From NCBI GenBank assembly GCA_016703535.1, contig JADJBV010000002.1, forward strand, positions 2,177,721 to 2,241,720: a stretch of DNA of 64,000 nucleotides, in the 5' to 3' direction. The notes beneath the pieces are model-generated. The model saw nothing but the letters and a program-made list of their open reading frames with translations, searched no databases and had not been told where the DNA came from. The position numbers were made by a program, and so were the translations under genes. Positions 33,882-60,380 of the stretch are shown here, piece after piece (the first letter of the stretch is position 1; each line of letters starts with the position of its first letter). The stretch is from Deltaproteobacteria bacterium (GTDB taxonomy: Bacteria > Myxococcota > Kuafuiibacteriia > Kuafuiibacteriales > Kuafuiibacteriaceae).

Positions 33882-33955
33882 GCTCCCGTAGCTCAGTTGG
33901 ATAGAGCGACGGTTTCCTAAACCGTAGGCCACAGGTTCAATTCCTGTCGGGGGCG
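33882..33955 (+). tRNA. tRNA-Arg (anticodon CCT)
   Basis: Hand-folded. Acceptor is GCTCCCG/CGGGGGC, D-arm is GCTC-AGTTGGATA-GAGC, anticodon stem is ACGGT/ACCGT with loop TTCCTAA, and the T-arm is ACAGG-TTCAATT-CCTGT. Confidence 0.85.
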
Positions 33956-33986
33956 TAGCTCGGATCCACTGGGGAAGGGCGTGTGA

Positions 33987-36305: not shown

Positions 36306-36341
36306 CCCTCGGGGCCGGCTGGGATTCCTTCCGCCCTCGTC

Positions 36342-36989
<648 letters not shown>

Positions 36990-36991
36990 AC

Positions 36992-39777: not shown

Positions 39778-39845
39778 GCCTTGGCCGGCGCTACCAAGAT
39801 CGCCTCCGTCTCAATTCGCCCGACCCCTGGCCGAATGAGACCTAC

Positions 39846-40592: not shown

Positions 40593-40601
40593 CTTCGGCC
40601 G

Positions 40602-41846: not shown

Positions 41847-42892
41847 TGCGCGCCGGGTGGGGGCTCTTGTTGGCCCTTTGGGCCTGCGGCGACGAGGTCG
41901 AGCCCCCCGACGGCGGCGCCTTGGATTCGGGCCCGGCGGACACCGGACAGGTCCTCGACGTTGGACTCGACGCCGCCGTCTTCGATCAGGGCGCTGACGC
42001 GGGTCCGGCGGACCTCTCCTTCGCCGACGCGGCCCCTCCCGACGCCGACCCGGTGGATCTCGGGCCCATCGATCCCCTGGTGGGGCGAGGTACGGTGGAG
42101 TTGGTCGCCGAAGGCTTCACCTTCACCGAAGGTCCCCAGTGGATCGAGGCCGACGGCACGCTGCTCTTCAGCGACATCAACGGCAACACCATCCACCGGC
42201 TCACGCCGCCGGCCGCGATCAGCCCCTACCGGATGCCCAGCAACAACTCCAACGGCTTGGCGATCGACGTCCAGGGCCGCTTGTTGGCCGCCGAACACGG
42301 GGCCCGTCGGGTGTCGGTGGCGACCTTGGGACAAGCCGAAGTGACCTTGGTCGAACGGTACCAGGGGCAACAACTCAACTCCCCCAACGACCTGGTGGTC
42401 CGCAGCGACGGCACCATCTACTTCACCGACCCACCCTACGGTTTGGGCAATCGGCAGCGGGAGGTTCCATTTAATGGAGTCTATCGAATAGATCCACTGG
42501 GCGCCCTGGAGGTCGAGTGGGAGGGACCCCTCTCCAGCCGGCCCAACGGCATCGCCCTTTCGCCCGACGAACAGGTGCTCTACGTGGCGGACACGGTGGG
42601 GTTGGTGCGGGCCTACGACGTCTTGGGGAGCGGCGCCTTGACCAACGAGCGGACCCTCGTGCCCAACATCAGCGGCCCGGACGGGATGGCGGTGGACAGC
42701 GCCGGCAACCTCTACGTCACCGCGGGGACCGGGGTCGAGGTGTACGGGCCCGATGGCCACTCCTTTGGCGTGATCCCGGTGCCCCGCCAGCCCGCCAACT
42801 GCGCCTTTGGGGGCGCCGACCACCGGACCCTCTACATCACCGCCCGCCAGGGGCTCTACCGCGTCTCCCTCTCGATCCCTGGCTTACCGTAG
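41843..42892 (+). CDS. SMP-30/gluconolactonase/LRE-family lipoprotein
   Basis: Lipobox LALWACG. Beta-propeller motifs FTEGPQW, NSPNDLVVRSDGTIYFTDP and RPNGIALSPDEQVLYVADT. Confidence 0.75.
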   Translation: MMRAGWGLLLALWACGDEVEPPDGGALDSGPADTGQVLDVGLDAAVFDQGADAGPADLSFADAAPPDADPVDLGPIDPLVGRGTVELVAEGFTFTEGPQWIEADGTLLFSDINGNTIHRLTPPAAISPYRMPSNNSNGLAIDVQGRLLAAEHGARRVSVATLGQAEVTLVERYQGQQLNSPNDLVVRSDGTIYFTDPPYGLGNRQREVPFNGVYRIDPLGALEVEWEGPLSSRPNGIALSPDEQVLYVADTVGLVRAYDVLGSGALTNERTLVPNISGPDGMAVDSAGNLYVTAGTGVEVYGPDGHSFGVIPVPRQPANCAFGGADHRTLYITARQGLYRVSLSIPGLP

Positions 42893-42908
42893 TGGTAGGG
42901 ACTGAGGC

Positions 42909-43232
42909 GTGAGCCTCTCCGAAAAGAGCTGCGTGCCATGCCGCGGCGACGTCCCCCCTCTCCCGCCTTCGGAGGTTGAAGGGCTGCTGTTGGAGCTGCC
43001 GGCCTGGAGTTTGGTCGATGGGCACCTCTATCGACGCTTCGACTTTCCGGACTTCACCTCGGCCCTGGCGCTCCTCAACCAGGTCGCCGCCTTGGCCGAG
43101 GTCGAGGGCCACCACCCGGATCTCCTGCTGGCCTGGGGGCGCTTGGAGGTGACCATCTTCACCCACGCGATCAACGGGCTCACCGAAAGTGACTTCGTGT
43201 TGGCCGCCAAGATCGATCGCTTGAGGCGTTGA
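42909..43232 (+). CDS. Pterin-4a-carbinolamine dehydratase
   Basis: 107 aa with the PCD signature EVEGHHPDL. Confidence 0.8.
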   Translation: MSLSEKSCVPCRGDVPPLPPSEVEGLLLELPAWSLVDGHLYRRFDFPDFTSALALLNQVAALAEVEGHHPDLLLAWGRLEVTIFTHAINGLTESDFVLAAKIDRLRR

Positions 43233-43813
43233 TGTTGCACCTGGCCGTCGCCACCACCGATCCGACCTGGGCCACTCGAGCCGCCGCGGCCTTGCCGGTG
43301 GTCCTGTTGGACCACGCCCACTGCGAAAAGAAGGCGGCCTCGACCGCGGTGAACCTGATCTTCCGTTATCCCGATCGCCCCCAGCTGATGTTGCCCTTGT
43401 CTCGGCTGGCCCGAGAGGAGTTGGCCCACTTCGAGGAGGTGCTGGAGCAGCTGGCGGCCCGCGGGATCCCGTTTGGTCGACAACGCCCCAGCCCCTACGC
43501 CGGCAAGTTGATGGCCTGCCTGCGGGAGAAGGAGCCGGCGCGCCTGCTCGACACGTTGTTGTGTTGTGCCTTCATCGAGGCCCGGAGCTGCGAGCGGATG
43601 AAGTTGTTGGCCGAGGCCCTGACCGATCCGGAGCTGATCAAGCTCTACAAGGGGCTTTTGGCGGCCGAAGCTCGGCACCATCAGCTCTACCTGGAGTTGG
43701 CCTTGACCATCGCCCCCGAGGCCGAGGTGGAGGCGCGCTTGGCCGAGATCGGCGCCCACGAGGGACGGGTGATCGCCGAGGGGCCGACCGAACCGCGGCT
43801 CCACAACGCCTGA
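43229..43813 (+). CDS. miaE: tRNA-(ms2io6A)-hydroxylase MiaE-like ferritin-fold protein
   Basis: DHAHCEKKAA and CAFIEARSCERMKLLAE diiron-ligand blocks. Confidence 0.7.
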   Translation: MMLHLAVATTDPTWATRAAAALPVVLLDHAHCEKKAASTAVNLIFRYPDRPQLMLPLSRLAREELAHFEEVLEQLAARGIPFGRQRPSPYAGKLMACLREKEPARLLDTLLCCAFIEARSCERMKLLAEALTDPELIKLYKGLLAAEARHHQLYLELALTIAPEAEVEARLAEIGAHEGRVIAEGPTEPRLHNA

Positions 43814-43850
43814 GGTGACGCGCCGCTCAAACCCGGCTAAAGGGCCAGGC

Positions 43851-44333
43851 ATGGCGACCCGCCACTGGCTCTTCAAGTCCGAGCCCGAAGTCTTCTCCTT
43901 CGACGACCTCTGGAAGGCCAAGGGCCGCACCACCTCCTGGGACGGGGTGCGCAACTACCAAGCCCGGAACCTCTTGAGGGACGAGATCAAGAAGGGGGAC
44001 CTGGTCCTCTACTACCACTCCAACGCCGATCCCCAGGTGGTGGTGGGTGTATGTGAGGTCGTGAAAGAGGGGCATCCGGACCTCACCCAGTTCGACCCGA
44101 AGTCGGACCACTACGATCCCGACGCCGAAGAAGGGAATCCGCGGTGGTACGTGGTCGACATCAAGGCCAGGGACCGCTTGGAACGGCCGGTCTCCTTGCC
44201 CGAGCTCAAGGTGGCCAAGGGGCTGGACGGCCTGATGTTGACCAAGAAGGGCTCGCGGCTGTCGGTCCAGCCGGTCAGCCCTGAGCACTTTGCGCGCATT
44301 CTCGAAATCGCCCAGGAAAAGCCGAAAAAATAG
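43851..44333 (+). CDS. EVE (PUA-like) domain protein
   Basis: RHWLFKSEPEVFSFDDL...WDGVRNYQARN is the EVE-domain signature. I prefer the start at MATRHW. Confidence 0.7.
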   Translation: MATRHWLFKSEPEVFSFDDLWKAKGRTTSWDGVRNYQARNLLRDEIKKGDLVLYYHSNADPQVVVGVCEVVKEGHPDLTQFDPKSDHYDPDAEEGNPRWYVVDIKARDRLERPVSLPELKVAKGLDGLMLTKKGSRLSVQPVSPEHFARILEIAQEKPKK

Positions 44334-44376
44334 GCAAATTGGTGCCCTGCCGCTCCAGTTGGGCCGAGGGCGTCCG

Positions 44377-45201
44377 ATGTGTATCGGAGTGGATGTTCTG
44401 CTCCCGGCTCGACCGAGTCGACTCACCTGTTATGTCTCGGACGGCGTGATCTTCGAGGCCCCGGTCCAGCGGCTGACCGCGACCGGAGTTTTCGTGCCCT
44501 GCACCCGGGACGACCTCCAGCTGACCAACGAGGTCCGGGTCGACTTCCACAGCGACCCCCCGATCAGCTTCCACGGCACGGTCTCCACTTGGGTGCGGGG
44601 CCGTGGCGTCCGCATCGAGGCCGGCTACAACACGCCGACCGAAGTCCTGGACGTGCTCTCGCGTTGGGCCGCCGAAGATCCCCAAAGTGGGGACCTGCCC
44701 AGGGTCGAGGCCCGAGAGCCGACGCCGGTGCCACGCCTGCCGCCACCTCGCTTGCCGACGCCGGCCCCCAAGGCCGCCCCCACGCCGGCCCTGGAGGCTT
44801 CGGCGCCCGCGAAGACCAGCAAACAACCGATCACCGACACCCGACGCCTGCTGATCGTCGATGACGATCCCGGCATCTTGAAGATGTTGCACCGTCGGTT
44901 GTCCCGCTTCGGCTACGACATCGCGGCGGTCGACTCGCCCCCCGACGCGCTGGAGCTCCTCCATAAACAGGACGTGGACGCGGTGTTGCTCGACTGGATG
45001 CTCCCGACCATCCCGGGCTACGACATGCTCAAAGAGATCAAGCAGGAGCACCCGGGCCTCCCGGTGGCGGTTGTCTCGGGATCTTTGTGGTGGCAAAACG
45101 CCGAGGCCGAGCTGTTGACCTTGGGCGCCTCTCGCGTGTTCCCCAAGCCGATCGACCTCGAGGCGGTGGCGGCCTGGTTGGAAGTCGCCACTCACCGCTA
45201 A
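44377..45201 (+). CDS. Hybrid N-terminal PilZ-like domain + C-terminal CheY-like receiver domain protein
   Basis: The C-terminus is a canonical receiver (LLIVDDDPGIL...DAVLLDWMLP...PVAVVSG...KP). The N-terminal ~110 aa is PilZ-like, followed by a Pro-rich linker. Confidence 0.65.
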   Translation: MCIGVDVLLPARPSRLTCYVSDGVIFEAPVQRLTATGVFVPCTRDDLQLTNEVRVDFHSDPPISFHGTVSTWVRGRGVRIEAGYNTPTEVLDVLSRWAAEDPQSGDLPRVEAREPTPVPRLPPPRLPTPAPKAAPTPALEASAPAKTSKQPITDTRRLLIVDDDPGILKMLHRRLSRFGYDIAAVDSPPDALELLHKQDVDAVLLDWMLPTIPGYDMLKEIKQEHPGLPVAVVSGSLWWQNAEAELLTLGASRVFPKPIDLEAVAAWLEVATHR

Positions 45202-45434
45202 ACTTCGGGGCCGCTACTTGGCGGTCACCCGCAACGAGATGCGGCGGTTTTTGCCGCGGCACTCTTCGGTGTCGTTGGTCGGACACACGAAGTGGTTGGC
45301 GCCGTAGCCCTCGGGATCGATGCGCTTCTTTTCGATGCCCAGGTCAATCAGGTTCTGAGCCACGTTCTTGGCCCGCCCGGTGGAGAGTCCACTCTGGCCC
45401 GCGTCGATGGCGAGCCCTGGCTAGACCCGTGGGA

Positions 45435-47249
45435 TCATCGCTCCTGGATCTCGACCTCGGCGCCTTCGACGTGGAACTCGACCCGACGGTTTTGGGCCCG
45501 ATTGTCTGGGCTGTTGTTGGGGACCAGCGGTTGAGTTTCGCCGAAGCCCGCGGGCTCTAGCAGACCTTGGTCCACGCCTTGGGCGACCAGGTAAGCGACC
45601 ACACTCTTGGCCCGCTTCTCCGAGAGGCGCAGGTTGCCCGAGTCGTTGCCGACGTCGTCGGTGTGGCCTTCGACCCGAACCTTGGTCAACTTGTTCCGCT
45701 TGATCACCGCGGCCACGTCGTTGAGGAGCGCGTAGGAGCGGGCCTCGATCACCGCCGAGCTGGTCTTGAAGTAGACCTTGTCCAAGATCTCGATCCGCTC
45801 ACCCTTCAGCACCGCCAGCTGCTTCTTGGCGCAGCCGCCGTTCTCCAGGACCCCCGGCTCGTCGGGGCACTGATCCAGGCGATCGGCGATGTTGTCGTGG
45901 TCTCGATCGGTGTCGGGGCAGCCCTTGTTCTCCTTGACCCCCGGCGCCGAAACGCACTTGTCGGCCACGTCGAGCACGCCGTCGGCGTCGTTGTCCGGAT
46001 CCGGGCAGCCGTCTTGGTCCTCCCACTGGTCCACGTCTTCGGCGTCGTTCGGGCACTGATCGGCCTTGCCGCGCAGACCGTCGCCGTCGGGGTCGGGCAC
46101 CTCGTCGGGGCAACCGTCCTGATCTTCGTGTTCGTTTTGGGTCTCGGGCTCGAGGCGACACCGATCGGCGGTGTCCGGGATCTGGTCGCCATCGTCGTCG
46201 GGATCGACGCAGCCGTCTTGGTCTTCGAACTCGTCCTTGTCCTCCGCCACGTCCGGGCAGGTGTCGTCCGGATCGTTCAAGCCGTCGCCGTCGCTGTCGG
46301 TGGGCGGGGCCCAGGTGTAGCGCAGGCCGAGCAGGGCCCGGAAGTCGGGGGTGCCGTAGGCCTTGGTGAGGCCCACGCCGCCCGCGGCGTAAGCGGTGAG
46401 GGGGATCGGGAAGTCGTAGGCCAGGCCAAAGTCGAGTTCGCTGGCGACCGCCTCCGCGGACTCGAAGGCCAGATCCAACACCGTGGCCATCGAATAGGAG
46501 AGGTCCAGCTCCAGCGGCGGGCCGCCCACCTCCGCCAGCCGGGCGCCGAGGCCGACCTTCAAGAAGAACTCGTCATCGACGGCGAGGTTCACGAAGTCGA
46601 CCTTGTTGCGCATTCGAAAGCCGACGTTGCCGGCCAAGCGCATCAGGCCAAAGCTGCGAGAGGCCAAGAGGGCCGGGCGGAAGCCCACGGTGTCGTCGCC
46701 GAAGTAGGCCTCTTCGGTGGCGGTGGGCAAAGACACCGCCGCCATCACCGCCAGGTCCAGGCCCTGATCGGCCTGGCGCAAGATGCGGATCTTGGGGATC
46801 AGCCTCAGATCTCCGAGGCCAGCGCTGCTCAACTCCGGGAGGGTCCCGACCACCCCGGGCAAGAGGTCACTGCGGCTCTGGCCGAGGATCACCGGCAAGG
46901 CCAAGCCCAGCTCCACCCACTCGAACAGGGCGATGGCCCCGCCGACCTCACCACCCCAACGGGAGGCGACCAGGGAACCTTGGCGTTCGTCGTCGCTCTC
47001 TCGATAGAGCACCAAGGGGTCGTTGGCGTAGCCCATCCACAACCAAACGTTCCACGACAAATGCCGTGGAACACCGGCCCACTCGGTGTCCAGAATGCCG
47101 CCCCGATCGATGGTCAAGGCGAAGCGTTCGATGCCGAAGCTCCTTCGCTCCGGCACGTTCTGGGCGTTGGCCTGCTGGGCTGCCGCGCCGGTCGCCAACA
47201 GGAACACCAGCGCCGTGGTGACCCGCCGCCGTAGGCCTGAGGTGCGCAC
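45435..47249 (-). CDS. OmpA-family protein module: signal-peptide-like N-terminus, beta-rich domain, thrombospondin-type-3 (TSP3) Ca-binding repeats and a C-terminal OmpA peptidoglycan-binding domain. It lies in the same continuous frame as the giant ORF below.
   Basis: A candidate GTG start at 47249 gives VRTSGLRRRVTTALVFLLATGAAAQQANAQ (n-region, h-region, AXA). TSP3 repeats follow (DSDGDGLNDPDDTCPD, EDQDGCVDPDDDGD, repeated). The C-terminal OmpA domain is VYFKTSSAVIEARSYALLNDVAAVIKRNKLTKVRVEGHTDDVGNDSGNLRLSEKRAKSVVAYLVAQGV...NRRVEFHV. No stop codon separates it from the upstream module. Confidence 0.55.
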   Translation of the reverse strand: MRTSGLRRRVTTALVFLLATGAAAQQANAQNVPERRSFGIERFALTIDRGGILDTEWAGVPRHLSWNVWLWMGYANDPLVLYRESDDERQGSLVASRWGGEVGGAIALFEWVELGLALPVILGQSRSDLLPGVVGTLPELSSAGLGDLRLIPKIRILRQADQGLDLAVMAAVSLPTATEEAYFGDDTVGFRPALLASRSFGLMRLAGNVGFRMRNKVDFVNLAVDDEFFLKVGLGARLAEVGGPPLELDLSYSMATVLDLAFESAEAVASELDFGLAYDFPIPLTAYAAGGVGLTKAYGTPDFRALLGLRYTWAPPTDSDGDGLNDPDDTCPDVAEDKDEFEDQDGCVDPDDDGDQIPDTADRCRLEPETQNEHEDQDGCPDEVPDPDGDGLRGKADQCPNDAEDVDQWEDQDGCPDPDNDADGVLDVADKCVSAPGVKENKGCPDTDRDHDNIADRLDQCPDEPGVLENGGCAKKQLAVLKGERIEILDKVYFKTSSAVIEARSYALLNDVAAVIKRNKLTKVRVEGHTDDVGNDSGNLRLSEKRAKSVVAYLVAQGVDQGLLEPAGFGETQPLVPNNSPDNRAQNRRVEFHVEGAEVEIQER

Positions 47250-50200
47250 CGGCGCCGCTAGAAGTGCCCTCCGGCGCCCGAACACGCCGAACGCGAGCAG
47301 AAGCAGCCCAACTGCCACCGAGCCGAGGGGCCCTGGAGTCGGCCCGTGGGAGGTCGAACAACCACAGCCGCCCCCCGCCAGGCCGATCCCGTCGACGACG
47401 CCGTCGCCGTTGTCGTCGACGTCGCAGCCGGCCCCTTGGCCGTCAGCGTCCAGGTCCAACTGATCCGGGTTGGGCAGGGCCGGACAGTTGTCGCTCCCAT
47501 CGGGGACGCCGTCGCCGTCTTGGTCGGCGCTGCCCAGCTGATCGTCGGCCGGGTTGAGCGGATCTCGTTCACCGTCGTCTTTGCGCCCGTTTTGGTTGGT
47601 GTCTTCGTCGCCGTCTTCGGCGCCGCCGTTGTCGGTGTCCGGGTCGACCGCCGAGGTGGTGGTGCCCGGATCCGCGTCCGGCACGAAGAAGCCCGCCCCG
47701 ACGTTGGTGTCGGCGTTGGGGGTGGTCACGCCGAGTTCGGTGCCGTCGAAGAGGCCGTCGTCGTCCGAGTCGGGATCCAGCGCGTTGATCGCGCCGTCCT
47801 GATCGCCGTCGACCCCGGGGTTGGGTTCGTCGCCGTCGAGCACGCCGTCGTCGTCGCTGTCGGCGTCTTGGGGATCGGTGCCCAGGTCGGCCTCTTCGTC
47901 GTCGCTGAGGCCGTCCTGGTCCGAGTCGGTCGGGGCCTGGTCGTCGCTGCCCAAGTTGGGATCGGTCTCGCCGCCGTCGATGCGGCCGTCGTGGTTGGCG
48001 TCTTCGGCGCCGTCGTCCACGCCGCCGTCGTCGGTGTCTTTGTCGAGGGGATCGGTGGTGGTGGTCGGATCTTGATCCGCCACGAAGGCTCCGGCGGCGA
48101 CGTCGGTCCCGGTCCCCGGGGTGGTCACGCCCAGCTCGGTGCCGTCCAAGATCGCGTCGTTGTCGCTGTCCGGATCCAGGGCGTTGATCAGACCGTCGCC
48201 GTCGCTGTCCACCCCGGGCCGCGGTTCAGCGCCATCTTTTATGCCGTCGTCGTCGCTGTCGGCGTCATCCGGATCGGTGCCGAGCTGGACCTCGACGTCA
48301 TCGGGCAAACCGTCGCCGTCCCGGTCGTTGGCTTGGTCGTCGCTCGGGTCCAGCGGATCCCGCTCCCCCGGATCCCGTTGGCCGTCGAGATCCAGGTCCT
48401 CGAGGCCGTCCGAGAGGCCGCCGCCGTCGCTGTCCGGATCCACCGCCGAGGTGGTGGTGTTGGGATCGGCGTCGGGCACGTAGTTCCCCGCCGCCACGTC
48501 GGTGTCGGCGTTGGGTTGGGTGACGCCCCGTTCGGTGCCGTCGAAGAGTCCGTCGCCGTCGCTGTCGGCGTCCAGCACGTTCACTCGGCCGTCGCCGTCG
48601 GTGTCGTGACCCGGGTTGTTCTCTTGGCCGTCGATCACCCCGTCGTCGTCGCTGTCGGCGTCCGCCGGATCCGAGCCGAGGGCGGCCTCTTCGTCGTCGC
48701 TGAGGCCGTCGCCGTCTCCATCGGTCGGGGCCACGTCGTCGGCGGCCAGGTTGGGGTCGGTCTCGCCCGCGTCGATGCGCCCGTTGTGGTTGGCGTCTTC
48801 GGCGCCGTCCTCGACCGAGCCGTCATCGCTGTCGGCGTCGAGGGGATCGGTGGTGTTCGACGGATCCGCGTCCGGCACGAAGGCGCCGCTCGAAGCGTCG
48901 GTGCCCGGGCCGGCCACGGTGACGCCCAACTCGGTGCCGTCGAAGATCCCGTCGTCGTCGCTGTCCGGATCGTTGGCGTTGACCAAGCCATCCCCGTCGC
49001 TGTCGACGCCGGGCATCCGTTCACTGCCATCCCCAACGCCGTCGTCGTCGCTGTCGGGGTCATCCGGGTCGGTCCCGATCGCCACCTCTTCATCATCGGG
49101 CAGGCCATCCCCGTCCCGATCGTTTTCACAGGCGTCGCCGATCCCGTTGCTGTTGCCGTCGATCTGGTCGGTGTTGATCACCGTCCGGCAGTTGTCGGTG
49201 CCGTCGACGATGGTGTCCATGTCGCTGTCCAGGTCTCGGAAGTCCGGGGTCCCGTCGCCATCCGAGTCGACCGGCGGCGTGGTGCCCAGGTTGTCCCCGG
49301 CCTCGTCCTCGTCGTTGACCCCGTCCATGTCGCTGTCCAGGTCCAGGTAGTCAGCGGTGCCGTCGTTATCGGTGTCGACCGGGGCCGTACCCAGGTTGGT
49401 GTCGCCGGCTTCATCCCGGTCCAAGATCCCGTCGTCGTCCGAGTCCAGGTCCTGGAAGTTGGGGGTGCCGTCGCCGTCGGTGTCGCCGGTGCCCTCGACG
49501 TCGTCGGGGATGCCGTCGCCGTCGGTGTCCAAGAGGTCGTCGTTGCGGTTCCTTGGGTTCCGTTCGCCGGCGTCGACCCGACCGTTGCGATCGGCGTCTT
49601 CCACGCCGTCGTTGACCGTGCCTCGATCGGTGTCGGCCAAGACGGGGCTGGTCGTGGTGGTGGGATCCGCGTCGGCGCGGAAGTTGCCCCGGGCCACGTC
49701 GGTGGCGGTGCTGGTGGTGGTCACGCCCAGTTCGGTGCCGTCGAAGATCCCGTCGCCGTCCGAGTCCGGATCGAGGACGTTGATCGTGCCGTCGTTGTCG
49801 CTGTCGTCGGCGTAGTTGGGTTCGTCACCGTCCAACACGCCGTCGTCGTCGGTGTCCGCGTCGTTGGGATCACTCCCCAGCCGCACCTCTTCGGCGTTGG
49901 ACAGGCCGTCGCCGTCGGTGTCCGCCGAGGGCAGGCGGTCGTCGCTGGGATCCAGGGGGTTGCGTTCCCCAGCGTCGACCCGGCCGTTTTTGTTGGTGTC
50001 TTCGGTGCCGTCCCGCAAGCCGCCCCGGTCGGTGTCGGGATCGATCGGGCTGGTGGTGGTGGTCGGATCCGCATCGGCCACGAAGTGCCCGGCCGCGACG
50101 TCGGTGTCGGGACCGGCGGTGGTCACGCCGAGCTCGGTGCCGTCGTAGAGGCCGTCGTTGTCCGAATCCGGATCCAAAAGGTTGGGCGCGCCGTCGGCGT

Positions 50201-53200
50201 CAGCGTCGGCGGCGAAGTTGGGCTCTTCGCCGTCCCGCACCCCGTCGTCGTCGCTGTCGGCGTCGTTGGGGTCGCTGCCCAGCTCCGCTTCGACCACGTC
50301 CGGGAGGCCGTCCCCGTCGGTGTCGACCAAGGCCGGGACGTCGTCGGCGGCCAAGTTGGGGTTCCTTTCGCCGAGATCGACCCGCCCGTTGCGGTTCAGA
50401 TCTTCGGCGCCGTCGTTGACCGTGCCGTTGTCGGTGTCGGCGTCCAGCGGATCGGTGGTGCTGGCCGGGTCTTGGTCGGCGAGGAAGGCGCCTCGGCTCA
50501 GATCGGTGTCGGCGTCCGGCGTGGTGCGGCCGAGTTCGGTGCCGTCGTAGAGGCCGTCGTCGTCGCTGTCCACGTCTCGGGCGTTGATCAACCCATCCCC
50601 GTCGCTGTCGACCAGGGGCGAAGGCTCCGCGCCATCGGGCGCGCCGTCGTCGTCGGTGTCGGCGTCGTTCGGATCGGTCTCGTTGGCGTCCTGGAAGCCG
50701 TCCCCGTCGGCGTCTTCGTCACCATCGGCCAGGCCGTCGCCGTCGGTGTCGGCGGCGTTGGGGTTGGTGGTGCTGGTCGGGTCGGTGTCGGGGACGAAGG
50801 CTCCTGCACCCGGATCAGTGTCCGGGGTCTCGGCGGCGGTCAGGCCCCGTTCGGTGCCGTCGTGGAGGCCGTCGCCATCGGTGTCCGCCTCGACCGGTGA
50901 GGACTCGCCCGGGTCCAACACGCCGTCGCCGTCGGCGTCTTCGGTGCCGTCCAACAAACCATCGTCATCGCTGTCGGCATCCAGCGGCGAGGAGCCCCAA
51001 GTGTCCACCTCGACGCCGTCCCCCACGCCGTCGTCGTCGCTGTCCGGATCGTTGGGATCGGTGCCCAGGCCCCCTTCGCGCACGTTGGTCAGGCCATCGC
51101 CGTCGTCGTCGGCGCCGACCTCGATCTGCACCGTCGCCGTGTCGAAGCCGCCGTTGCCGTCGCTCACCGTGTAGGTGAAGCTGTCGGTCCCGACAAAGCC
51201 GGGGTTGGCGGTGTAGGTGATGGTGCCGTCGCCGTTGATCACCGCCGTGCCGTTGGCGGGCAGGCTGACGCCGTCGATCGCCAGGGTGTCGCCGGCGTCG
51301 GGATCTTGGTCGTTGCCCAACGCCGCGATCACCACCGACTGACCCGGATCGGCCTCGGCCTCGTCATCGGCCGCCACCGGCGCGTCGTTGGTCGGGTTGA
51401 TGATGATCGTGACCTGAGCGGTCGAGCTTTGGCCGTCCGCGTCGGTCACCTGGTAGGTGAAGGTCGCGGTCCCGTTCTGGTCCGGCGCCGGGGTGAAGAT
51501 GATGGTCCCGTCGGGTTGGGCCACCGCGGTGCCTTGGGCCGGGGCGCCGGTGACGCTGACCGAAACCGGGCCGTCGCCTAGGCCGCTGTCGTTGGCCAAC
51601 ACGTTGACGGTGACCGCTTGATCTTCGTCGGTGGTGGTGTTGTCGGCGGCGGCGCTGGGGGTGTCGTTGCGCGGCTGGACCGTGACGGTGACGGTGGCGG
51701 TGGACTGCTGCCCGTCGGCGTCGGTGACCGTATATTGGTAGCTGTCGGTGCCGTTGAAGTCGGCCCGGGGCGTGTAGCGGACGGTCCCGTTGGCGTTGAC
51801 CACCACCGTACCGTTGCTCGGCTGGGCCGCGATGCTGACGGTGACCGGGCCGTCGCCCAGGCCGCTGTCGTTGGCCAAGAGGTTGCTGTTGACCGTGCCG
51901 TCTTCGGCCACGGTGACGGCGTTGTTGTTGGCCACCGGGGTGTCGTTGACCGCGGTGACGGTGATCTGGACCGTGGCGGTGTCGTTTTGGCCGTCGGCGT
52001 CGGTGACCCGGTAGGTGAGGGTGACGACGCCGTTGAAGTCGGCGGCCGGTGTGTAGGTGATGGTTCCGTTGGCGTTGGCCACCGCGGTGCCGCTCCCCGG
52101 TGGGGTGACGATGGTGACCGTCACCGGCGTGTTGCCCAGGCCGGTGTCGTTGCCCAATACATTAAATGTACCGGCCGAGTCCTCGGCGGTGTTGACCAGG
52201 TCGTTGACCGCGTCCGGGATGTCGACGGTGGGATCCAGGTAGTCGGGGATGGTGTCGCCGTCGAGGTCACCGGTTTCGGTGGCGTCGGGGCGGCCGTCGC
52301 CGTCGCTGTCGGTGTCGTACCAAGGGGGGACTCCGTCGCCGTCGATGTTCAGCCCGTAGGTGGTGCCTTGGGCCAGTTCGGTGCTGGTGGGGATGGTGTC
52401 GCCGTCGTCGTCCGAATCCCGGAAGTTGAGGAGGCCGTCGTTGTCGACGTTGCCGGTGCCTTCGGCCGAGTCCAGGACGCCGTCGTTGTCGCTGTCGGTG
52501 TCCAGGGCGTCGATGGGACCGTTGCCGTCGGTGTTGATCGGCAAGCCGCCGTTGGTCTCGACGCCGTCGTTGATCCCGTCGTTGTCGCTGTCGGTGTCCA
52601 GCGGATCGGTGCCGATGCCGACCTCTTCGCCGTCGTCAGCGCCGTCGTTGTCGGTGTCGACGTCGGCCGGATCGGTGCCGTAGGTGCAGAGCTCGTCGAT
52701 GTCGCTGAGGGTGTCGCCATCGGTGTCGGTGGCGGCGCTCAAGGCCCGGACCTGGATCGTCCCGGACTGGGTGCTGCGGGCCCAGCTGTAGGTGTCGAGG
52801 AAGGCGTTGTTCCCCTTCGATGTAGCGCTGTAGTTGCCCCAGGCGCGGCCGTTGATGTTGGCCAACACCGCGTCCGCGTAGTTGCCAGAAGCCATCCCGT
52901 TGGCGCCCGACGCGACCAACCCTTGCTGGCCGTTGGGCATGTTGACCTCGTTGGCTTGGACCGCCGCGTCGTTCCAATACATCGCCAGGCCGGTGCGCCC
53001 GTTGGCGGCGTCGACCTCGAAGAACTGCATGCCCTGGTAGCTGGTCTCGATGTCTTGGGCCAGGTAGTGGACTTCACCGACCTGGATCGAAGCCCGGCAG
53101 TCGTAGTTGCCCGTGGGCACGAAGTTGCCGGCGTTGTTGCGCCCGTCCCAGGCCCGGGTGTTGGCGCCGGGGGTGGTGGTGCCGATCAAAAACAGGTCCG

Positions 53201-53996
53201 CCGTGGAGGTGCGGTCGAACTGGCCGTCTTGGTTGAGGTCGCAGATCAAGTGATAGGTTCCGGTGACGTCGGTGGTGAAGCTGAAGAGGCCCGTCGAGGT
53301 CCCGGGGACGATGGCGCTGCAGGTCTCCGCCGCGCCCACCTGGGTGAAGGTGAAGTTGCTGACCGCCGGCACCAAGGGGTTGTAGGTCGCGAGGGTCGGG
53401 GGGTTGAGGTAGATCTGGTAGAGCGGCGTGAAGGTGTTGCCGGCGCTGGGCACGCTGCGGCCGGCGTTGGCGCCGTTGACGCCCGTCTGGTTCATGCCCA
53501 TGTTCCAGATGAAGCCCTGGAGTCCATTGAAGCGAATGTCGATGACCGCGTTGCGGTTGGCAGCGCCGCCGTTCACCAAGGCGTAAAGTGAGGTGTTCAT
53601 CGCCGATGCGCCGCCGGCGTAGGTGCCGGTGTCGAAGTACCAGCGGGTCGACCACAACCGCCCGCCCGCTTGCACTGGGTTGTTGACCCGCAGGTCCCAG
53701 GCGCCGCCTTGGTCGTTGGTCAAGGTCACCCGATAGGCGCCGTTGCCGTTGCCGTTCAGGTTGGCGGTGGCGCCGTTGCCCAAGGTGGCGATCTGGGTGC
53801 CGGCCGGATTGAAGATCCGGGCCTGGCCCGCGCCGCTCCAAGTGATGGTCTCGACGGTGGCGTCCAAGATGTCGACGTTCAACACCGTGGTGTTGACCAT
53901 GTCCGATTGGGTGCCGAGGGTCGCGGTGCCTTCGGCTCGGGCGATCAGCGGAGCCAACAAAAGGGAGGCGAAGATCGACGTGGCAATTCGCGACAT
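47250..53996 (-). CDS. Giant secreted repeat adhesin module (about 2250 aa): signal peptide, unknown beta-rich N-terminal domain, ~5 cadherin-like/Ig-like repeats, ~9 large TSP3 Ca-binding repeat modules, then a MYXO-CTERM-like sorting signal
   Basis: Signal peptide MSRIATSIFASLLLAPLIARAEG. Cadherin-like repeats (VTVTAVNDTPVANNNAVTVAEDGTV..., about 100 aa each) lie around 51.0-52.2 kb. Dozens of TSP3 motifs (DTDGDGLxDxxE, DSDDDGxxDG) lie around 47.4-51.0 kb. The frame ends with GCGCSTSHGPTPGPLGSVAVGLLLLAFGVFGRRR (Cys-rich GCGC, TM helix, RRR). The reading frame then continues into the OmpA module without a stop. Confidence 0.55.
47262..47375 (-). other. MYXO-CTERM-like tripartite sorting signal (GCGCS / ~13-aa spacer / TM helix / RRR) located internally in the 8.56-kb ORF
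   Basis: Translation GLAGGGCGCSTSHGPTPGPLGSVAVGLLLLAFGVFGRRR was verified codon by codon on the minus strand. A TAG lies 2 codons downstream in the +1 frame. Confidence 0.6.
47400..51000. repeat. Intragenic tandem repeats: about 9 copies of a ~420-bp module encoding TSP3 repeat units (DSDxDGLxDGTELGVTTP..DTDVAAGxFVxDADPxTTTDPLDxDTDxGGVxDGxEDxNxNGRxDxGExDPNL)
   Basis: The periodicity is visible in both the nucleotide and protein sequence. The antisense shadow ORFs 47346..50900 and 51618..53591 come from the same repeats. Confidence 0.7.
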
Positions 53997-54141: not shown

Positions 54142-54976
54142 TCAGCTCAGGCCCAACACTTCGCGGACGGTGGTGAAGGGGAGGGCCTTCACGAGGTACT
54201 CGAGCTTGCCAAACATCCGATCGAGCCCGTTGTAGCCGCGGAAGTCGCGCAAGGTACCTTGCGAAAAGCGCGGGATCTCCGGATCGATCTCCCAGGGGTG
54301 GAGGTAGACGATGGTGGGCTGGCCTTCGGCCTGGTTCACGTGGGCGAGGGCCTTCGCCAAGATCTCCACCGGAAAAAGCCGCAGGTAACCACCGCCCGCG
54401 ACCGGCAGGTTTCGCCCGAACTTGCGATAGGTGGTCAGGGGGAACTCCCAGAGTTTTTTTCCGTGGATTGAAAGCTCAACCGGGAAACGGGAGTAGTCGG
54501 CGATGCCGTAGCGGTCGTGCACGATCGGGAAGATCGACGACGAATACCCAAAGCCCTCTTCGACCAAGATCTCATGGGCCCACAAGGACTGACGGGTCAC
54601 CGAATACGTCGGGGCCCGATAACCAACCACCCTGGCGCCAATCAAGCCCTCGAGGAGATCCTTCACCTGCCGCAGATCCGCTCGGAACTCAAGCGGGGGT
54701 CATCTCGAAGACCAGCCGGTGCCAGTAGCTGTGGGCCGCCACCTCGTGACCACGCCGGTGGATCTCTTTGACCAAGGCCCGTTGGCGATCGGCGACCCAA
54801 CCCAACACGAAGAAGGTCGCCTTGATCCCGTGTTGATCGAAGAGATCGAGCAGTCGCCGGGTCTGTTGATCACTCCGCATCGGTTGGGCCGGCCACAGGT
54901 CTCGTGGCACCCGCTGGTCGAGGTTCTGGACCGTGAAGTACTCCTCCACGTCCACCGTCATCGCGTTCTGCACCAC
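54142..54976 (-). pseudogene. Polysaccharide deacetylase (NodB-homology, PEP-CTERM/EPS-locus subfamily with DUF3473 C-terminal half), interrupted by a 1-nt frameshift at a C5/G5 run near 54694-54699
   Basis: The N-terminal piece (54689..54976) carries NodB motifs TVDVEEYF, ATFFVLGWVA and GHEVAAHSYWH and ends ...RLVFEMTPA*. Shifting one base reads straight on as PPLEFRADLRQVKDLLEGLIGARVVGYRAPTYSVT, the start of the 54142..54666 ORF. Confidence 0.6.
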
Positions 54977-54980
54977 GGCC

Positions 54981-55928
54981 TCAGCCCTTCGCGCGTTTTT
55001 TCCGAGTGCCCTTGTTGCCTCGGGCCAAGAACACCGAACCCACCACTCGGGTTCGGCCGATGGTCTCGACCGCCTTGTCCAGGGCGGCCCGTTTGGTGCG
55101 GCCCGCGGCGCCGATCATCACGACTGCGTCGACGTTCTGAGCGATCAGCGGCACGTCAGCGTGAGGGATGGCGGCCGGCGCGTCGATCAGCAAGACATCG
55201 ACGGACTGGTAAAGTTCGGCCAGCAGTGACTTGAACTTGGGCGAACTCAAGATGGAGGCGGGGTTCTGGTGGGTCCCGCCAGCGTGCAACACGATCAGGT
55301 TGCGCCCCAACACCCGGGCCACACACTGGGACAGGGGGAACTTGCCCTCCAACGCCTGCAGCAGCCCGCGGTTTTGATCCAGGTTGAACAAACTCCCAGC
55401 CCGGGGGGCCCGGAAGTTGGCGTCGATCAGCGCGATCTTCCGCTCCGAGTCTTCGCTCATCACCAAGGCCAAGTTGGAGGCGACCACCGTCTTGCCGTCC
55501 CCTTCACCGGGGGAGGTGAACAAGAAGGACTTGTAGCCGAGCCGGGTCCGCATCTCCTCCAGCCGAGTCGCCAAGATTCGGACCTCGGCGGCGAAGGGCC
55601 CGTCTTTTTCGTGCAGGACCATCAGGTCCTTCGACTCGGAGGGCATGGCGCTGATCGCAGTGTCGGTCAGCGAGATGGTCTGGCCTTTGACCAAGGCGCC
55701 GCGGCTCGACGGCGCAGGCGCGGCGGCGCCACTCGGCGGGCTCCAGCTGGCCCGGGCGCTCCTCGGGGCCGGCGCCTCGGGGGCGGCGCTCCGTCGGCCC
55801 GACTCGATGGACTCGGGCAAGCGCATCATGCCCGGCTTGTTGCTGAACACCTGCGAGCCCGGCGTCGAGGCCAAGGTCTTGGGCGGAAATGCCCCTTTGG
55901 GGCCGCCCTTTTTTCCGTCGTCGCTCAA
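54981..55928 (-). CDS. BY-kinase-like (CpsD/Wzc C-terminal, MinD/ParA-superfamily) exopolysaccharide-biosynthesis ATPase
   Basis: Walker A-like SPGEGDGKTVVASNLA, DANFRAP (A') and VLLIDAPAA (Walker B). The Ala/Pro-rich N-terminus is disordered. Confidence 0.65.
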   Translation of the reverse strand: MSDDGKKGGPKGAFPPKTLASTPGSQVFSNKPGMMRLPESIESGRRSAAPEAPAPRSARASWSPPSGAAAPAPSSRGALVKGQTISLTDTAISAMPSESKDLMVLHEKDGPFAAEVRILATRLEEMRTRLGYKSFLFTSPGEGDGKTVVASNLALVMSEDSERKIALIDANFRAPRAGSLFNLDQNRGLLQALEGKFPLSQCVARVLGRNLIVLHAGGTHQNPASILSSPKFKSLLAELYQSVDVLLIDAPAAIPHADVPLIAQNVDAVVMIGAAGRTKRAALDKAVETIGRTRVVGSVFLARGNKGTRKKRAKG

Positions 55929-56524
55929 TCGGCTGATCCTTTGCCGGCCAGAGGCCCTTCATCTGGCCGCGTCGTCGACTTCGTGTCCAGCCCCGTCGGT
56001 GGGGTGGGCGTGGGCTTTGGGTCCAGCGGCGCCGCGGCGGCCTTCTTTTCGGCCCGGGCTTGCAACTCCGCCGCGGCCTTCAGGACCTTTCGGACCGCGT
56101 CCTCGAACAGGGCTTCGGGCGCCGCGATCGTCACCAGGTAGGATACGGAGCCCGGCACGACCCACTGGCGAACCCGGTGTGAACCGTCTCGCCGATCGAT
56201 CTGCGGTGCTTCGAAGGGGCCGGTGCTCAGGACCCCCGGCTTGGCTTCGGCCGACAAGGCGGCCGGCAACCCGTTCAAAGCCTCGCTCCCGGCTTCAACC
56301 GAGGGCTCCAGCCGATGGACGGTGACCACCACTTGCCCGTCCGGGTTCTTGGGACCCAAGAACACCGCGAGGGTCCCATCCGGGAGCTCCTTCTGGTTGC
56401 TCCAACCTTTGGGCACCAGCGCTTGAACCTGGTTCCAAGTCGGGGGACGCGGCGAAGACGCCGAAGCCACCTCGGGCCAGGCCGCTCCGTAGAGCAGCAC
56501 CAAAAGCAGCCCCCGCCGCCTCAC
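55925..56524 (-). CDS. Secreted hypothetical protein
   Basis: Signal peptide MRRRGLLLVLLYGAAWPEVASA. No recognised domain. Confidence 0.45.
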   Translation of the reverse strand: MRRRGLLLVLLYGAAWPEVASASSPRPPTWNQVQALVPKGWSNQKELPDGTLAVFLGPKNPDGQVVVTVHRLEPSVEAGSEALNGLPAALSAEAKPGVLSTGPFEAPQIDRRDGSHRVRQWVVPGSVSYLVTIAAPEALFEDAVRKVLKAAAELQARAEKKAAAAPLDPKPTPTPPTGLDTKSTTRPDEGPLAGKGSAD

Positions 56525-58710
56525 TTTTTTCGCCCCAAAAAGCCCAGGATCCCGCCCTTTTTTCCGCCCGCTTGGTCCTTGTTCACCGAAATGGTGGCGG
56601 CCATCGACAAGATCTTCTGCAGGTTCTTTTCGTAGGCGTTGTTGCCTGGCGCCAGCTCGATGGCCCGCTCCACCAGCTCTTGCGCCCGAATGAAGCTGTG
56701 CTTCTTCATCGCCAAGATCACGCCCAGGCGATTGTAGAACGCCGCTTGCTTCGACTCCTCGATCGCCCGCTCCAGAAGTTCGATGGCCCGATCGACGTTG
56801 CCGCTGTTTTCGGCTTCGGTGGCAGCGTTGTACAGCTCGCGGGCCTTCTCGAGGGCGCCGCTGCCGACCCCTTTGGGTTTGGCGTCCGGGTTCTTGTTCA
56901 GGTCTTCGAAGGCCTGGTTGTAGAGCGGGTTCGAAGGATCGAAGGTCAAGGCCAACTTCATGTTCATGCGGGCCGAGACCAAGTTGCCCTCGGCCTTGTC
57001 CTTGAGGGCCTGCTCGAACAACTTCTGGGCCTTCAACATCCGAGCGTTGTCGACCGGCTCGGCGTTCTTCAGCGGCCTCTCTCGCGGATCACTCTTTGGG
57101 CCCTCTTTGGCCTCGCTGGGGCGCGCCGGCTCGGGTTCGGCCTTGCGCAACGGCTCGGGGGGCACCGTGTCGGGCCCTCGCTTCTCCAAGCGGGACACCC
57201 CACTCAACTTCTCTTGGATCGGCCCTCGCTTCACCGCCGCGGCCAGGGCCCGTTTTTTCGCCTCTTTGGTGGCGGTGTCGTCGACCTGGGCGGTGCTCTT
57301 GCCCACCGGCGCGATCCGCGGGGTGCCGGTGATCTCCGGGCTCTGGAGCGGGTTGGCCGGCGCCTTGGTCACCAACGACGGAGGCACCTCCTCCAAAAAC
57401 GCGGGATCGAGCAGGGCCGGATGGGACGGCGCCTTCAGCGCGATCGGGCCCGACGGCTCCATCAAAGAAGGCAGTGGGGTGCTCCTCTTTTGGGCCTGGG
57501 CCGACGGCAGGCCCAGGGACGCTGGGGCCTTGGCGCCGGTCACCGAAGGCGGCGGCAAGTTGGCTTGCAGAGCGGCCCGGGCCCGGATCGGCTCGTCGGG
57601 GATCTCGACCTCCGCCGTGGCCTCCTCGGCGTCGCCTTCGTCGAGTTCACTCGGCTGCACCAAGGGACGATCGTCGGCCTCGTCCTCCTCCGGCTCTTCT
57701 CGTTCGATCAAACCCCCGGCGTCGTCGGCCGACACCGAGGACTCGGACCACACGTCGGACAAGGAGCTCTTCATCCGGCGCCGGGGCGCGACCGTCGGAT
57801 CTTCGCCCAAGGCGTGGGTCTCTTCCCAATCCGGGGTCGGTGAACGGGCCGAGGTGCTGGGCAATCGCGGCTCGGAGGTGACGCTGTCCTCCAGGCTCGG
57901 CTCGGCGTCTTCGTAGTCGGAGACGCTCGGCAGATCATCGAAGTCCGGCGGCAGCTGCACCTCGGGGGTTCGGGCGACCACCGCCGCTCGATCCAGGGAT
58001 TGGGTCTGGAGCAGCTCGTTGTCGTCGTCCGGCTCCTTGGGGAAGACCGGCAGCGGTGAAGGACGCCGCAGCGAAGCCGGCGCGGGCCCGGGGCGCGCCG
58101 CCTGACGTTTGGCCGGGGGCGGAGAGGCGGCCCGCAACGACTCACGCCGGCGACGTTCGCGTTGAGGCCTGCGGGTGGCGCCGTCGTGGCCGTTGGGGCC
58201 GACGATCACCACCGCGTTTTTATCGAGCAAGGTTAAGAGGGTCACCGCCACTTCTTGGGGGGCCAGGCCCGAGGTCTTTTGGATCTCCCGGACCGTGCGG
58301 CGACCGTCGATGCAGGAGAGGATGAAGTCTTCGTACGGCGTCCGGGGCAAGGTGGTGTCGGCCTCCGACAGCCGGGGCACCGCGTCGGGGTGCACCACTC
58401 GGGTCGTCGAGCCGGCGGCGTAGTAGAGGAAGGTCGAGGTCCGGCCCCCCTCGCCCGCGCCCGCGCCGTGGACCACCGCAAACTCTCCCTCGGCGACGCT
58501 GACGTTGCCCAAGATCACCGCGTCGGGGACCGAGTCTTCTTGTTCGGGCCGGGGCCAGGCGATCAGCTTGGTCCGCTCCTCTCGGATCGGAGCCTCCCCC
58601 GGTGCGCTGTCAGGGGGTGGCTCCAAGACGGACGGATCCAAAATGTGGTCACACTTCGGGCAGATCCAGGCCTCGTTGTTGATCGAGGCTTTACACGCCG
58701 GGCACTTCAA
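56521..58710 (-). CDS. Zinc-ribbon / DUF4388-like / C-terminal TPR repeat protein
   Basis: N-terminal CPxC..CPKC zinc ribbon. The block DFILSCIDGRRTVREIQKTSGLAPQEVAVTLLTLLDKNAVVIV is DUF4388-like. A long acidic/Pro-rich disordered middle is followed by C-terminal TPR helices. Confidence 0.5.
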   Translation of the reverse strand: MKCPACKASINNEAWICPKCDHILDPSVLEPPPDSAPGEAPIREERTKLIAWPRPEQEDSVPDAVILGNVSVAEGEFAVVHGAGAGEGGRTSTFLYYAAGSTTRVVHPDAVPRLSEADTTLPRTPYEDFILSCIDGRRTVREIQKTSGLAPQEVAVTLLTLLDKNAVVIVGPNGHDGATRRPQRERRRRESLRAASPPPAKRQAARPGPAPASLRRPSPLPVFPKEPDDDNELLQTQSLDRAAVVARTPEVQLPPDFDDLPSVSDYEDAEPSLEDSVTSEPRLPSTSARSPTPDWEETHALGEDPTVAPRRRMKSSLSDVWSESSVSADDAGGLIEREEPEEDEADDRPLVQPSELDEGDAEEATAEVEIPDEPIRARAALQANLPPPSVTGAKAPASLGLPSAQAQKRSTPLPSLMEPSGPIALKAPSHPALLDPAFLEEVPPSLVTKAPANPLQSPEITGTPRIAPVGKSTAQVDDTATKEAKKRALAAAVKRGPIQEKLSGVSRLEKRGPDTVPPEPLRKAEPEPARPSEAKEGPKSDPRERPLKNAEPVDNARMLKAQKLFEQALKDKAEGNLVSARMNMKLALTFDPSNPLYNQAFEDLNKNPDAKPKGVGSGALEKARELYNAATEAENSGNVDRAIELLERAIEESKQAAFYNRLGVILAMKKHSFIRAQELVERAIELAPGNNAYEKNLQKILSMAATISVNKDQAGGKKGGILGFLGRKK

Positions 58711-58776
58711 GGGCCCACACCCATCCCGGGTGGAGCATACCTGCGACCGGCAGGAGGCCCAATCGGCCCAAGGGAC

Positions 58777-59769: not shown

Positions 59770-59786
59770 GGCTCAGTCCTCTCGCG

Positions 59787-60296: not shown

Positions 60297-60380
60297 GCGG
60301 AGACGAGGCTAGCAGATCTGGGCCACCACCCCCATCGCCTTGTTGCGGATAGGCCCCCACAATGTGCGCAAAGGCCGGGC

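Follow-up and report, generated by a model that had tools for sequence, protein, structure and literature searches.

The 64,000-nucleotide window analysed here (positions 2,177,721 to 2,241,720 of contig JADJBV010000002.1 in assembly GCA_016703535.1 of a Deltaproteobacteria bacterium) encodes a single minus-strand open reading frame (ORF) of 2853 codons in which a giant MYXO-CTERM protein continues, through a second hydrophobic helix, into a protein similar to TraB of Myxococcus xanthus. It is probably a genuine single gene that specifies a two-part cell-surface module as one precursor, a fused version of the TraA/TraB principle and of the same kind as MXAN_5598 of M. xanthus. In this explanation, judged probable as a whole, the N-terminal 2243 amino acids (aa) would be a Ca2+-stiffened adhesin, in which a signal peptide and an all-beta head of a new type precede four cadherin-like Ig domains, a long TSP3 stalk and a MYXO-CTERM end, and the C-terminal 575 aa would be an anchor, in which a 12-strand FapF-like outer-membrane beta-barrel is joined through a TSP3 linker to a peptidoglycan-binding OmpA domain. 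Comparisons with metagenome contigs, domain models and related loci establish that the ORF is real and conserved, identify its domains and mark its two halves as conserved partners.

Reading frame, junction and domains

An initial annotation of this stretch had described an uninterrupted 8.56-kb ORF, and the minus-strand frame 45435..53996 does run from an ATG start through 2853 codons with zero internal stops. The G+C content at its third codon positions is 0.889, compared with an overall G+C content of 0.668 for the window, and is high in one frame on either side of the junction, which indicates coding sequence rather than a chance high-G+C ORF. An exact look-up of the 2853-aa product and of a neighbouring DsbA-like protein gave no match, a result that is uninformative about the annotation of the gene. 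In a Kyte-Doolittle scan of the entire protein, strong hydrophobic segments were found only at aa 4-19, 2222-2241 and 2259-2273, which are the predicted N-terminal signal peptide, the MYXO-CTERM helix and the second helix, respectively.

The two halves meet at GGGC2211GC2213S-TSHGPTPGP-LGSVAVGLLLLAFGVFG-R2241RR-ALLAAP-V2250-RTSGL-RRR-VTTALVFLLATGAAAQQ-A-N-A2278/QNVPERRSFGIERF (the slash marks a predicted cleavage site), where the linker between the two RRR clusters is ALLAAPVRTSGL and the second RRR is followed by VTTALVFLLATGAAAQQANA/QNVPERRSFGIERF. The initial annotation had located a GGG run at 47267-47269 and an in-frame GTG at 47247-47249, and had calculated that loss of one G would yield the ending RRR-H-F-TAG; both positions are correct, and the deletion reproduces that ending in frame 1. 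One of its two readings, that the assembly contains one extra base, is nevertheless refuted by two metagenome contigs of the JGI, which are independent assemblies spanning the junction: L088 (sample 3300056850), with 98.27% identity to window positions 28239-48038, and L089 (sample 3300056599), with 98.75% identity to positions 38097-49765. The exact 71-nucleotide junction, including GGAGGG, is present in both contigs and the junction peptide is identical. Over the 868 (L088) and 1443 (L089) codons of the ORF that they cover, there are zero indels and zero stops, and synonymous differences exceed non-synonymous ones by 14:9 and 30:16, respectively; the gene call on L089 has 2853 residues. Because this strain, 1.3-1.7% diverged from the window, has the same junction without indels, and because diverged orthologues are also fused, the reading frame is, as far as sequence comparison can tell, real and not an assembly error. 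The Der protein of the source genome (MBK6690061.1) is likewise present on JGI and Logan metagenome contigs.

The head of the adhesin, according to its predicted structure, is a new and confidently modelled family: it gave only generic Ig/FN3-like matches and belongs to no Pfam family, and the same type of head recurs in a family of MYXO-CTERM surface proteins. Big_9 (2e-76) and Cadherin_5 (1e-56) of Pfam each match four stretches of the protein, and the tandem-95 model of NCBIfam scores 216 bits. Asp makes up 26.6% of the TSP3 region (aa 966-2200), in which a DGTE[LR]G motif recurs every 132-134 aa; TSP3_bac repeats were detected in the profile scan, and the CglD model (NF033765) scores 394 bits over nine stretches, all of them on the repeats, the best stretch corresponding to profile positions 107-431 of 1124. 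The MYXO-CTERM model TIGR03901 matches aa 2208-2243 with 22.4 bits (cut-off 20), and all parts of the tripartite design are present, namely GGGC2211GC2213S, the hydrophobic aa 2222-2241 and R2241-R2243, so that the MYXO-CTERM motif named in the initial annotation was recovered, as were its signal peptide, cadherin-like repeats, TSP3 repeats and OmpA domain. The motif is not at the extreme C-terminus of the protein: 610 residues follow the RRR. No MYXO-CTERM tails were seen among the other ORFs of the window.

The C-terminal 604 aa have TraB (NF033763) as their best NCBIfam match, with 238 bits (237.9) against a cut-off of 700, and contain a Pfam OmpA domain (4.9e-23). The AlphaFold2 model of the anchor has twelve long antiparallel strands, with predicted local distance difference test scores (pLDDT) mostly of 80-97, followed by the TSP3 linker and the OmpA domain. 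Foldseek matched the barrel to FapF (target TM-score, TMt, 0.65-0.73) and a COG4313 channel, the TSP3 and OmpA portion best to the periplasmic portion of OmpA of Capnocytophaga gingivalis (PDB 5wtl, E 5e-20), and the OmpA domain to OmpA, Pal, YfiB and the C-terminal domain of OprF. The combination of signal peptide, outer-membrane beta-barrel, TSP3 repeats and OmpA domain found with AlphaFold2, Foldseek and Pfam agrees with the architecture of TraB (PMC12045341). The second helix is located where stand-alone homologues such as P0007 carry their N-terminal signal peptide, and the A-N-A of the window protein and the A-Q-A of P0007 each end 12 residues ahead of a conserved 'ERF'; this alignment of helix and AXA site indicates that the predicted internal signal peptide is correctly placed.

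Fused and split relatives

The closest TraB-like sequence (P0001, a partial locus of another assembly; 53% identity) is also fused, with a homologous linker in the matching frame (RR-S-L-R-R-APV-T, compared with RR-A-L-L-A-APV-R in the window), and the DNA motif CGGAGG(T/G)CACTTC is conserved between the two junctions. A full-length orthologue, P0200 (2259 aa), has 49% identity in the head and 52% in the TraB-like part and is fused through a short linker ('RRRR-ALLAAPVAIALTV...ARAQ'; 'RRRR-ALLAAPVAIALTVALAPQLARAQ'). Because the 'ALLAAPV' common to both proteins directly begins helix 2 in P0200, the long Arg-rich linker of the window, with its second RRR and GTG, looks like a derived expansion rather than a relic gene boundary. 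Window-type heads are present in three further fused proteins (P0267, P0178 and P0194), and a Bradymonadia metagenome-assembled genome (MAG) encodes a full-length fused relative (L007). The comparison with orthologous loci that the initial annotation had proposed thus found fusion in every case (P0200, P0267, P0178, P0194, L007 and the partial P0001), and there is a conserved orthologous group with the window-type head. Stops in the +1 frame close to the RRR, a TAG in the window and, in P0001, the TGA of a GTGA overlap, were considered as relics of two genes and rejected as general evidence: other fused loci do not have the pattern, and the linker of P0200 is short.

Fusion extends well beyond this group. 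With the junction plus the TraB-like part as query, 18 of the 120 best word-index matches are fused. So are 13 of the 80 GTDB species-genome loci among the matches listed, including those of the cultured Corallococcus coralloides (complete genome), Hyalangium versicolor, Vitiosangium and Pyxidicoccus; a scan of genome contigs gave no relative above 45% identity among the matches listed. An exhaustive hidden Markov model search found fusion in 78 of the 150 best cluster representatives (the longest fused protein has 6313 aa), a count made by regular expression on top-scoring representatives and not an unbiased frequency. When the TraB-like parts were placed in a neighbour-joining tree, fusion turned up in at least ten separate places, with the window as sister to P0001. 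The design, as found in these sequences, is common in the Myxococcota and arose repeatedly. Many of the junctions have no linker, the Arg cluster of the MYXO-CTERM doubling as the n-region of the next signal peptide (e.g. L001, 'LTRRRRRRHAAVVVALAAVVTAPSLAAAQ').

The same pair also occurs as separate genes. Among the 80 listed GTDB loci, a MYXO-CTERM gene is directly upstream of and co-oriented with the TraB-like gene in six (L008, L015, L016, L024, L033 and L039) and directly downstream in five (L003, L004, L005, L018 and L040), so that a MYXO-CTERM partner, fused to the TraB-like part in the window, is adjacent to it in 11 of the 80 as a split pair; such pairs were found in L082-L087 as well. 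L083 and L084 each have a TraB-like gene (46-48% identical) and behind it, after a 10-nucleotide gap or with a 20-nucleotide overlap, a gene for a MYXO-CTERM TSP3 protein, the N-terminal 440 aa of which are 38-40% identical to the window head. In L085-L087, short MYXO-CTERM genes of the head family directly follow genes for OmpA proteins that align over their full length with the TraB-like part (27-29% identity), with a 4-nucleotide overlap, a 1-nucleotide overlap or a 62-nucleotide gap. The occurrence of one pair in both arrangements, split with the anchor before the adhesin and fused with the adhesin before the anchor, argues strongly, as gene-fusion evidence, that the two proteins function as a pair. 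The coupling of a MYXO-CTERM adhesin to an OmpA/TSP3 protein, which the initial annotation had suggested from this locus only, is thereby strongly supported, with the additions that the C-terminal part is TraB-like and that split pairs are adjacent in either order.

Separately, a third arrangement was observed in a MAG locus (L028, 4318-6980, minus strand), where the TraB-like gene converges with an opposite-strand gene for a protein with window-type head and MYXO-CTERM tail. Within the Myxococcaceae, closely similar MYXO-CTERM tails ('GCSTGGAGTFAPLAL...') are fused to the TraB-like part, at a site beside ftsZ, in L048 (Pyxidicoccus) and L009 (Corallococcus), and split from it in L015 (Myxococcus sp. 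Y35), where the adhesin of 2811 aa ends in 'RLRRTGRPHTPAD' and a stop; fusion or fission therefore happened between close relatives.

Processing of the precursor and rival explanations

The proposed route begins with the N-terminal signal peptide, which would direct Sec export of the adhesin until the MYXO-CTERM helix stops transfer, leaving the Arg-rich loop in the cytoplasm in keeping with the positive-inside rule. The second helix would then restart translocation as an internal signal peptide, and a signal peptidase I cut after A-N-A2278 would free the TraB-like protein, whose barrel may be inserted into the outer membrane by the beta-barrel assembly machinery (BAM) while its OmpA domain binds peptidoglycan. 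Myxosortase (MrtX) is known to cleave MYXO-CTERM signals, and the type II secretion system (T2SS) moves TraA to the surface (PMC11980579); by analogy, MrtX would cut the adhesin at the Cys motif, after which the adhesin, presumably lipidated, would be carried to the cell surface by the T2SS, and the short two-helix hairpin would be discarded. The cell would thus obtain adhesin and anchor in an exact 1:1 ratio and at one location, where the two could assemble into a TraAB-like complex and so tether a long Ca-dependent surface adhesin to the cell wall. The polyprotein reading of the initial annotation therefore holds for the fused frame and the two-helix topology, at the level of sequence and comparison, whereas from the two cleavages onwards, through lipidation, T2SS dependence, complex formation and adhesive function, we infer the steps.

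Three rival explanations were considered. If the fused frame were an artefact, an extra G at 47267-47269 would have joined a MYXO-CTERM adhesin gene ending in RRR-H-F-stop to an OmpA gene that starts at the GTG at 47249. The ending restored by deleting one G and the textbook signal peptide after the GTG would fit this, the source is a MAG (a 2.85-Mb contig), and the apparent frameshift of the co-oriented upstream gene (approximately 54142-54990) indicates that indel errors or pseudogenes occur in the assembly. An artefact is nevertheless extremely improbable in view of the two independent contigs described above, with their intact ORF and 2853-residue call, and of the homologous linkers in matching frame in P0001 and P0200; moreover, among the matches listed, loci with the MYXO-CTERM part upstream of and co-oriented with the TraB-like part are fused rather than split by 13:6, and +1-frame stops occur 1-4 times per 110 codons at such junctions, so that one near the RRR is unremarkable. 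It is unlikely, too, that the ORF, though real and in frame, functions as two cistrons, the TraB-like protein being made mainly from the GTG at 47249 and the fusion being a tolerated by-product of which the extension is removed with the MYXO-CTERM tail. This GTG (V2250) is conserved in P0001, where a +1-frame TGA overlaps it (GTGA) much as traA and traB overlap by 4 bases (PMC3325183), and the second RRR follows it as an n-region. However, GGAGGG is 17 nucleotides ahead of the GTG, too distant for a Shine-Dalgarno sequence; a separate start would not fit into most fused relatives, where the Arg cluster is itself the n-region (L001, 'TRRRRRRHAAVVVALAAV...'; P0200, 'RRRRALLAAPVAIALTV'); and ribosomes arriving from the 6.7-kb upstream part would run through, so that the fused chain would need handling anyway.

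A protein that is left uncut at the second helix, either as a double-spanning inner-membrane protein with a periplasmic OmpA domain or as a decaying, functionless recent fusion, is very unlikely, even with cleavage deduced from sequence features and with an unusually long loop ahead of this helix in the window. The barrel is conserved and confidently modelled and would need release to reach the outer membrane, the position of the AXA site matches the signal peptides of stand-alone homologues, and the fusion has been kept across proteins that are only 37-52% identical, with synonymous changes exceeding non-synonymous ones between strains; MXAN_5598, furthermore, was detected as 'OmpA domain protein' in the outer-membrane vesicle and membrane proteomes of M. 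xanthus (PMC4158809).

The preferred reading, one gene for a precursor of adhesin and anchor, has several points weighing against it. Both cleavages, for the window protein as for every fused member, are deduced from sequence rather than from protein-level data, and the adhesive function is assigned from domain types only. The GTG at 47249, with a full n-region and h-region after it, might serve as a start codon for the TraB-like protein on its own, in which case the fused chain would not be the only product. The TIGR03901 score is only just over its cut-off, and that of the anchor is so far under the 700 bits of the TraB model that this half is, by sequence, TraB-like and not TraB. L088 and L089 carry common amino-acid differences from the window and so represent one further strain rather than two, and the ranking behind the count of 78 in 150 may favour long TSP3-rich proteins.

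A broader generalisation is somewhat better than an even proposition: the window gene would belong to a large and essentially undescribed class of polyproteins, in which a MYXO-CTERM and a signal peptide placed back to back as a two-helix hairpin are split by myxosortase and signal peptidase I into a lipid-anchored adhesin and an outer-membrane/peptidoglycan anchor, 1:1 and at the same site. TraB-like barrels would then be general partners of unrelated MYXO-CTERM adhesins, as suggested by the different heads, the recurrent fusions and the permuted gene order, and TraB would be no peculiarity of outer-membrane exchange. The repeated, independent fusion of different adhesins to TraB-like anchors is gene-fusion evidence for joint action, and it would extend to many surface adhesins of the Myxococcota a TraA-TraB partnership that has so far been known only from kin recognition and membrane exchange. 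Back-to-back sorting signals offer a simple model of how a Gram-negative bacterium may obtain a surface protein and its anchor at a fixed 1:1 ratio from one chain, and the fused genes are natural substrates for the question of whether myxosortase acts on internal signals. For annotation, giant ORFs with an internal MYXO-CTERM should neither be 'corrected' into two genes nor flagged as frameshifts.

Gene context and known systems

Table 1. Coordinates of the fused gene and its predicted parts within the window (a slash marks a predicted cleavage site).
Feature	Coordinates	Strand	Evidence
Complete fused ORF, 2853 aa: adhesin, internal MYXO-CTERM, internal signal peptide and TraB-like anchor	45435..53996	-	2853-residue call on independent JGI contig; junction identical in two other assemblies
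N-terminal signal peptide (predicted), aa 1-21, MSRIATSIFASLLLAPLIARA/EG	53934..53996	-	Hydrophobic aa 4-19; A-x-A/EG(S/T) mature N-terminus common to homologues
Head domain, aa 22-440, all-beta, several sandwich subdomains, without Pfam family	52677..53933	-	
First TSP3-type calcium-binding repeat block, aa 441-590, 26% Asp	52227..52676	-	
Four tandem cadherin-like / Big_9 / 'tandem-95' Ig-like repeats, aa 591-965	51102..52226	-	Pfam and NCBIfam
TSP3 stalk, aa 966-2200, 8 copies of ~133-aa super-repeat	47397..51101	-	DGTE[LR]G motif spacing; CglD model; TSP3_bac
Internal MYXO-CTERM sorting signal (predicted), aa 2208-2243: GGGCGCS, spacer, transmembrane helix, RRR	47268..47375	-	TIGR03901; hydrophobic aa 2222-2241
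Predicted cytoplasmic Arg-rich loop, aa 2244-2258, ALLAAPVRTSGLRRR; contains GGG run and in-frame GTG	47223..47267	-	
Second hydrophobic helix, putative internal signal peptide, aa 2259-2278, predicted signal-peptidase I site A-N-A/Q	47163..47222	-	Hydrophobic aa 2259-2273; position relative to stand-alone homologues
TraB-like outer-membrane beta-barrel (modelled), aa 2279-2562, ~12 strands	46311..47162	-	AlphaFold2; Foldseek; weak Pfam Phenol_MetA_deg match
Cys-containing TSP3 calcium-binding linker, aa 2563-2727	45816..46310	-	Invariant D/C/G columns in family alignment; Foldseek 5wtl
OmpA-like peptidoglycan-binding domain, aa 2728-2853	45438..45815	-	Pfam OmpA; Foldseek

The fused gene (Table 1) is flanked downstream by a convergent response regulator gene and upstream by genes for a DUF3473 deacetylase, a P-loop protein and TPR proteins. 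The DUF3473-family polysaccharide deacetylase, directly upstream and co-oriented (54142-54990, minus strand), shifts frame after '...HRLVFEMTPA' and a stop to '...EFRADLRQVKDLL...', and is either a pseudogene or the product of an assembly indel error. Beyond it, on the same strand (54981-63952), are a ParA/NUBPL-like P-loop ORF, a 729-aa TPR protein, a 330-aa ORF, a 927-aa ORF without family and a HEAT-repeat ORF, which together with the deacetylase may form a polysaccharide- or surface-related cluster. Right after the stop of the giant ORF is a short minus-strand ORF (45227-45430; a 49-aa call on both JGI contigs; 'LSTGRAKNVAQNLIDLGIEKKRIDPEGYGANHFVCPTNDTEECRGKNRRISLRVTAK') whose translation looks like an OmpA-like domain reduced to its C-terminal half and resembles the end of the giant ORF; judged by this resemblance, it may have been left behind when a 3' end was displaced or duplicated. 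Elsewhere in the window, a 414-aa double-DSBA gene (2-hydroxychromene-2-carboxylate isomerase-like; 40602-41846, plus strand) has in its place on L088 (12638-13610) a 122-aa DSBA ORF and a 183-aa ORF on the opposite strand, a difference between strains.

CglD, a lipoprotein of adventurous gliding motility, and MtsC, a MYXO-CTERM cell-cohesion protein, have the TSP3-rich super-repeat in common with the window protein. Membership in either family was rejected, as only the repeats matched, with 394 and 64 bits under cut-offs of 400 and 350, respectively. The window protein begins with a signal peptidase I-type signal peptide (A-R-A/EG) rather than a lipoprotein signal, so that only building blocks are shared with these two. 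Similarly, the FapF and COG4313 12-strand barrels match the window barrel in structure with a sequence identity of only 16-18%, and the resemblance is not meant to suggest a role in amyloid secretion or hydrocarbon uptake. No open-access literature was found on AgmC, and only a passing mention of MtsC.

The TraA/TraB system of M. xanthus has the same arrangement as the window gene, a MYXO-CTERM surface receptor being encoded directly ahead of, and on the same strand as, a partner with signal peptide, outer-membrane barrel, TSP3 repeats and OmpA domain, but in two genes instead of one. TraB is described as an outer-membrane beta-barrel protein with TSP3 repeats and an OmpA domain, and TraA:TraB complexes as 1:1 (PMC12045341). 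Pfam and NCBIfam scans of the window protein matched neither the PA14-like variable domain nor the Cys-rich TIGR04201 repeats that characterise TraA, and nothing in the protein points to kin recognition or membrane exchange. The split pairs (L083 and L084; more distantly, L085-L087) resemble the window gene in having both partner proteins, encoded by adjacent, co-oriented and often overlapping genes; they differ in that the anchor comes first and the adhesin second, that the MYXO-CTERM is truly C-terminal, that the proteins are made separately, and that the adhesins are much shorter (approximately 450-1150 aa).

The closest known counterpart in design is MXAN_5598 of M. xanthus. Internal MYXO-CTERM motifs have been reported to occur in ORFs 'in rare cases' (Guo, Haft and Wall, mBio 2025, PMC11980579), and the same study describes MXAN_5598 as an adhesin with MYXO-CTERM, outer-membrane barrel and OmpA domain, probably a gene fusion resembling TraA plus TraB, and proposes processing of its N-terminal part at the internal MYXO-CTERM. 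Like the window gene, MXAN_5598 is one ORF with a large adhesin, an internal MYXO-CTERM, a second hydrophobic helix, an outer-membrane barrel and an OmpA domain, and its orthologues L009 and L048 are fused with the same junction design. The adhesins, in contrast, are different: the MXAN_5598 type has an AgmC_N head, Big_13, Big_7 and Ca_tandemer repeats and few TSP3 repeats, whereas the window protein has an unrelated head, for which an NCBIfam scan gave no match to AgmC_N (NF047640), cadherin-like repeats and a 1200-aa TSP3 stalk. MXAN_5598 is adjacent to ftsA/ftsZ and its orthologues L009 and L048 adjoin ftsZ (the FtsZ signature was found), but there is no ftsZ near the window gene, which, by head and location, is not an orthologue of MXAN_5598. 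As a separate observation, the Corallococcus orthologue (L009, 2996-11734, plus strand) matches the NCBIfam AgmC N-terminal model with 364 bits (cut-off 275), which links MXAN_5598 to a named gliding-motility gene. The concept of a fused adhesin and anchor is therefore already in print for one protein, MXAN_5598; what is new is its breadth, its repeated origin, the split pairs in either order and the orthologous group with the window-type head.

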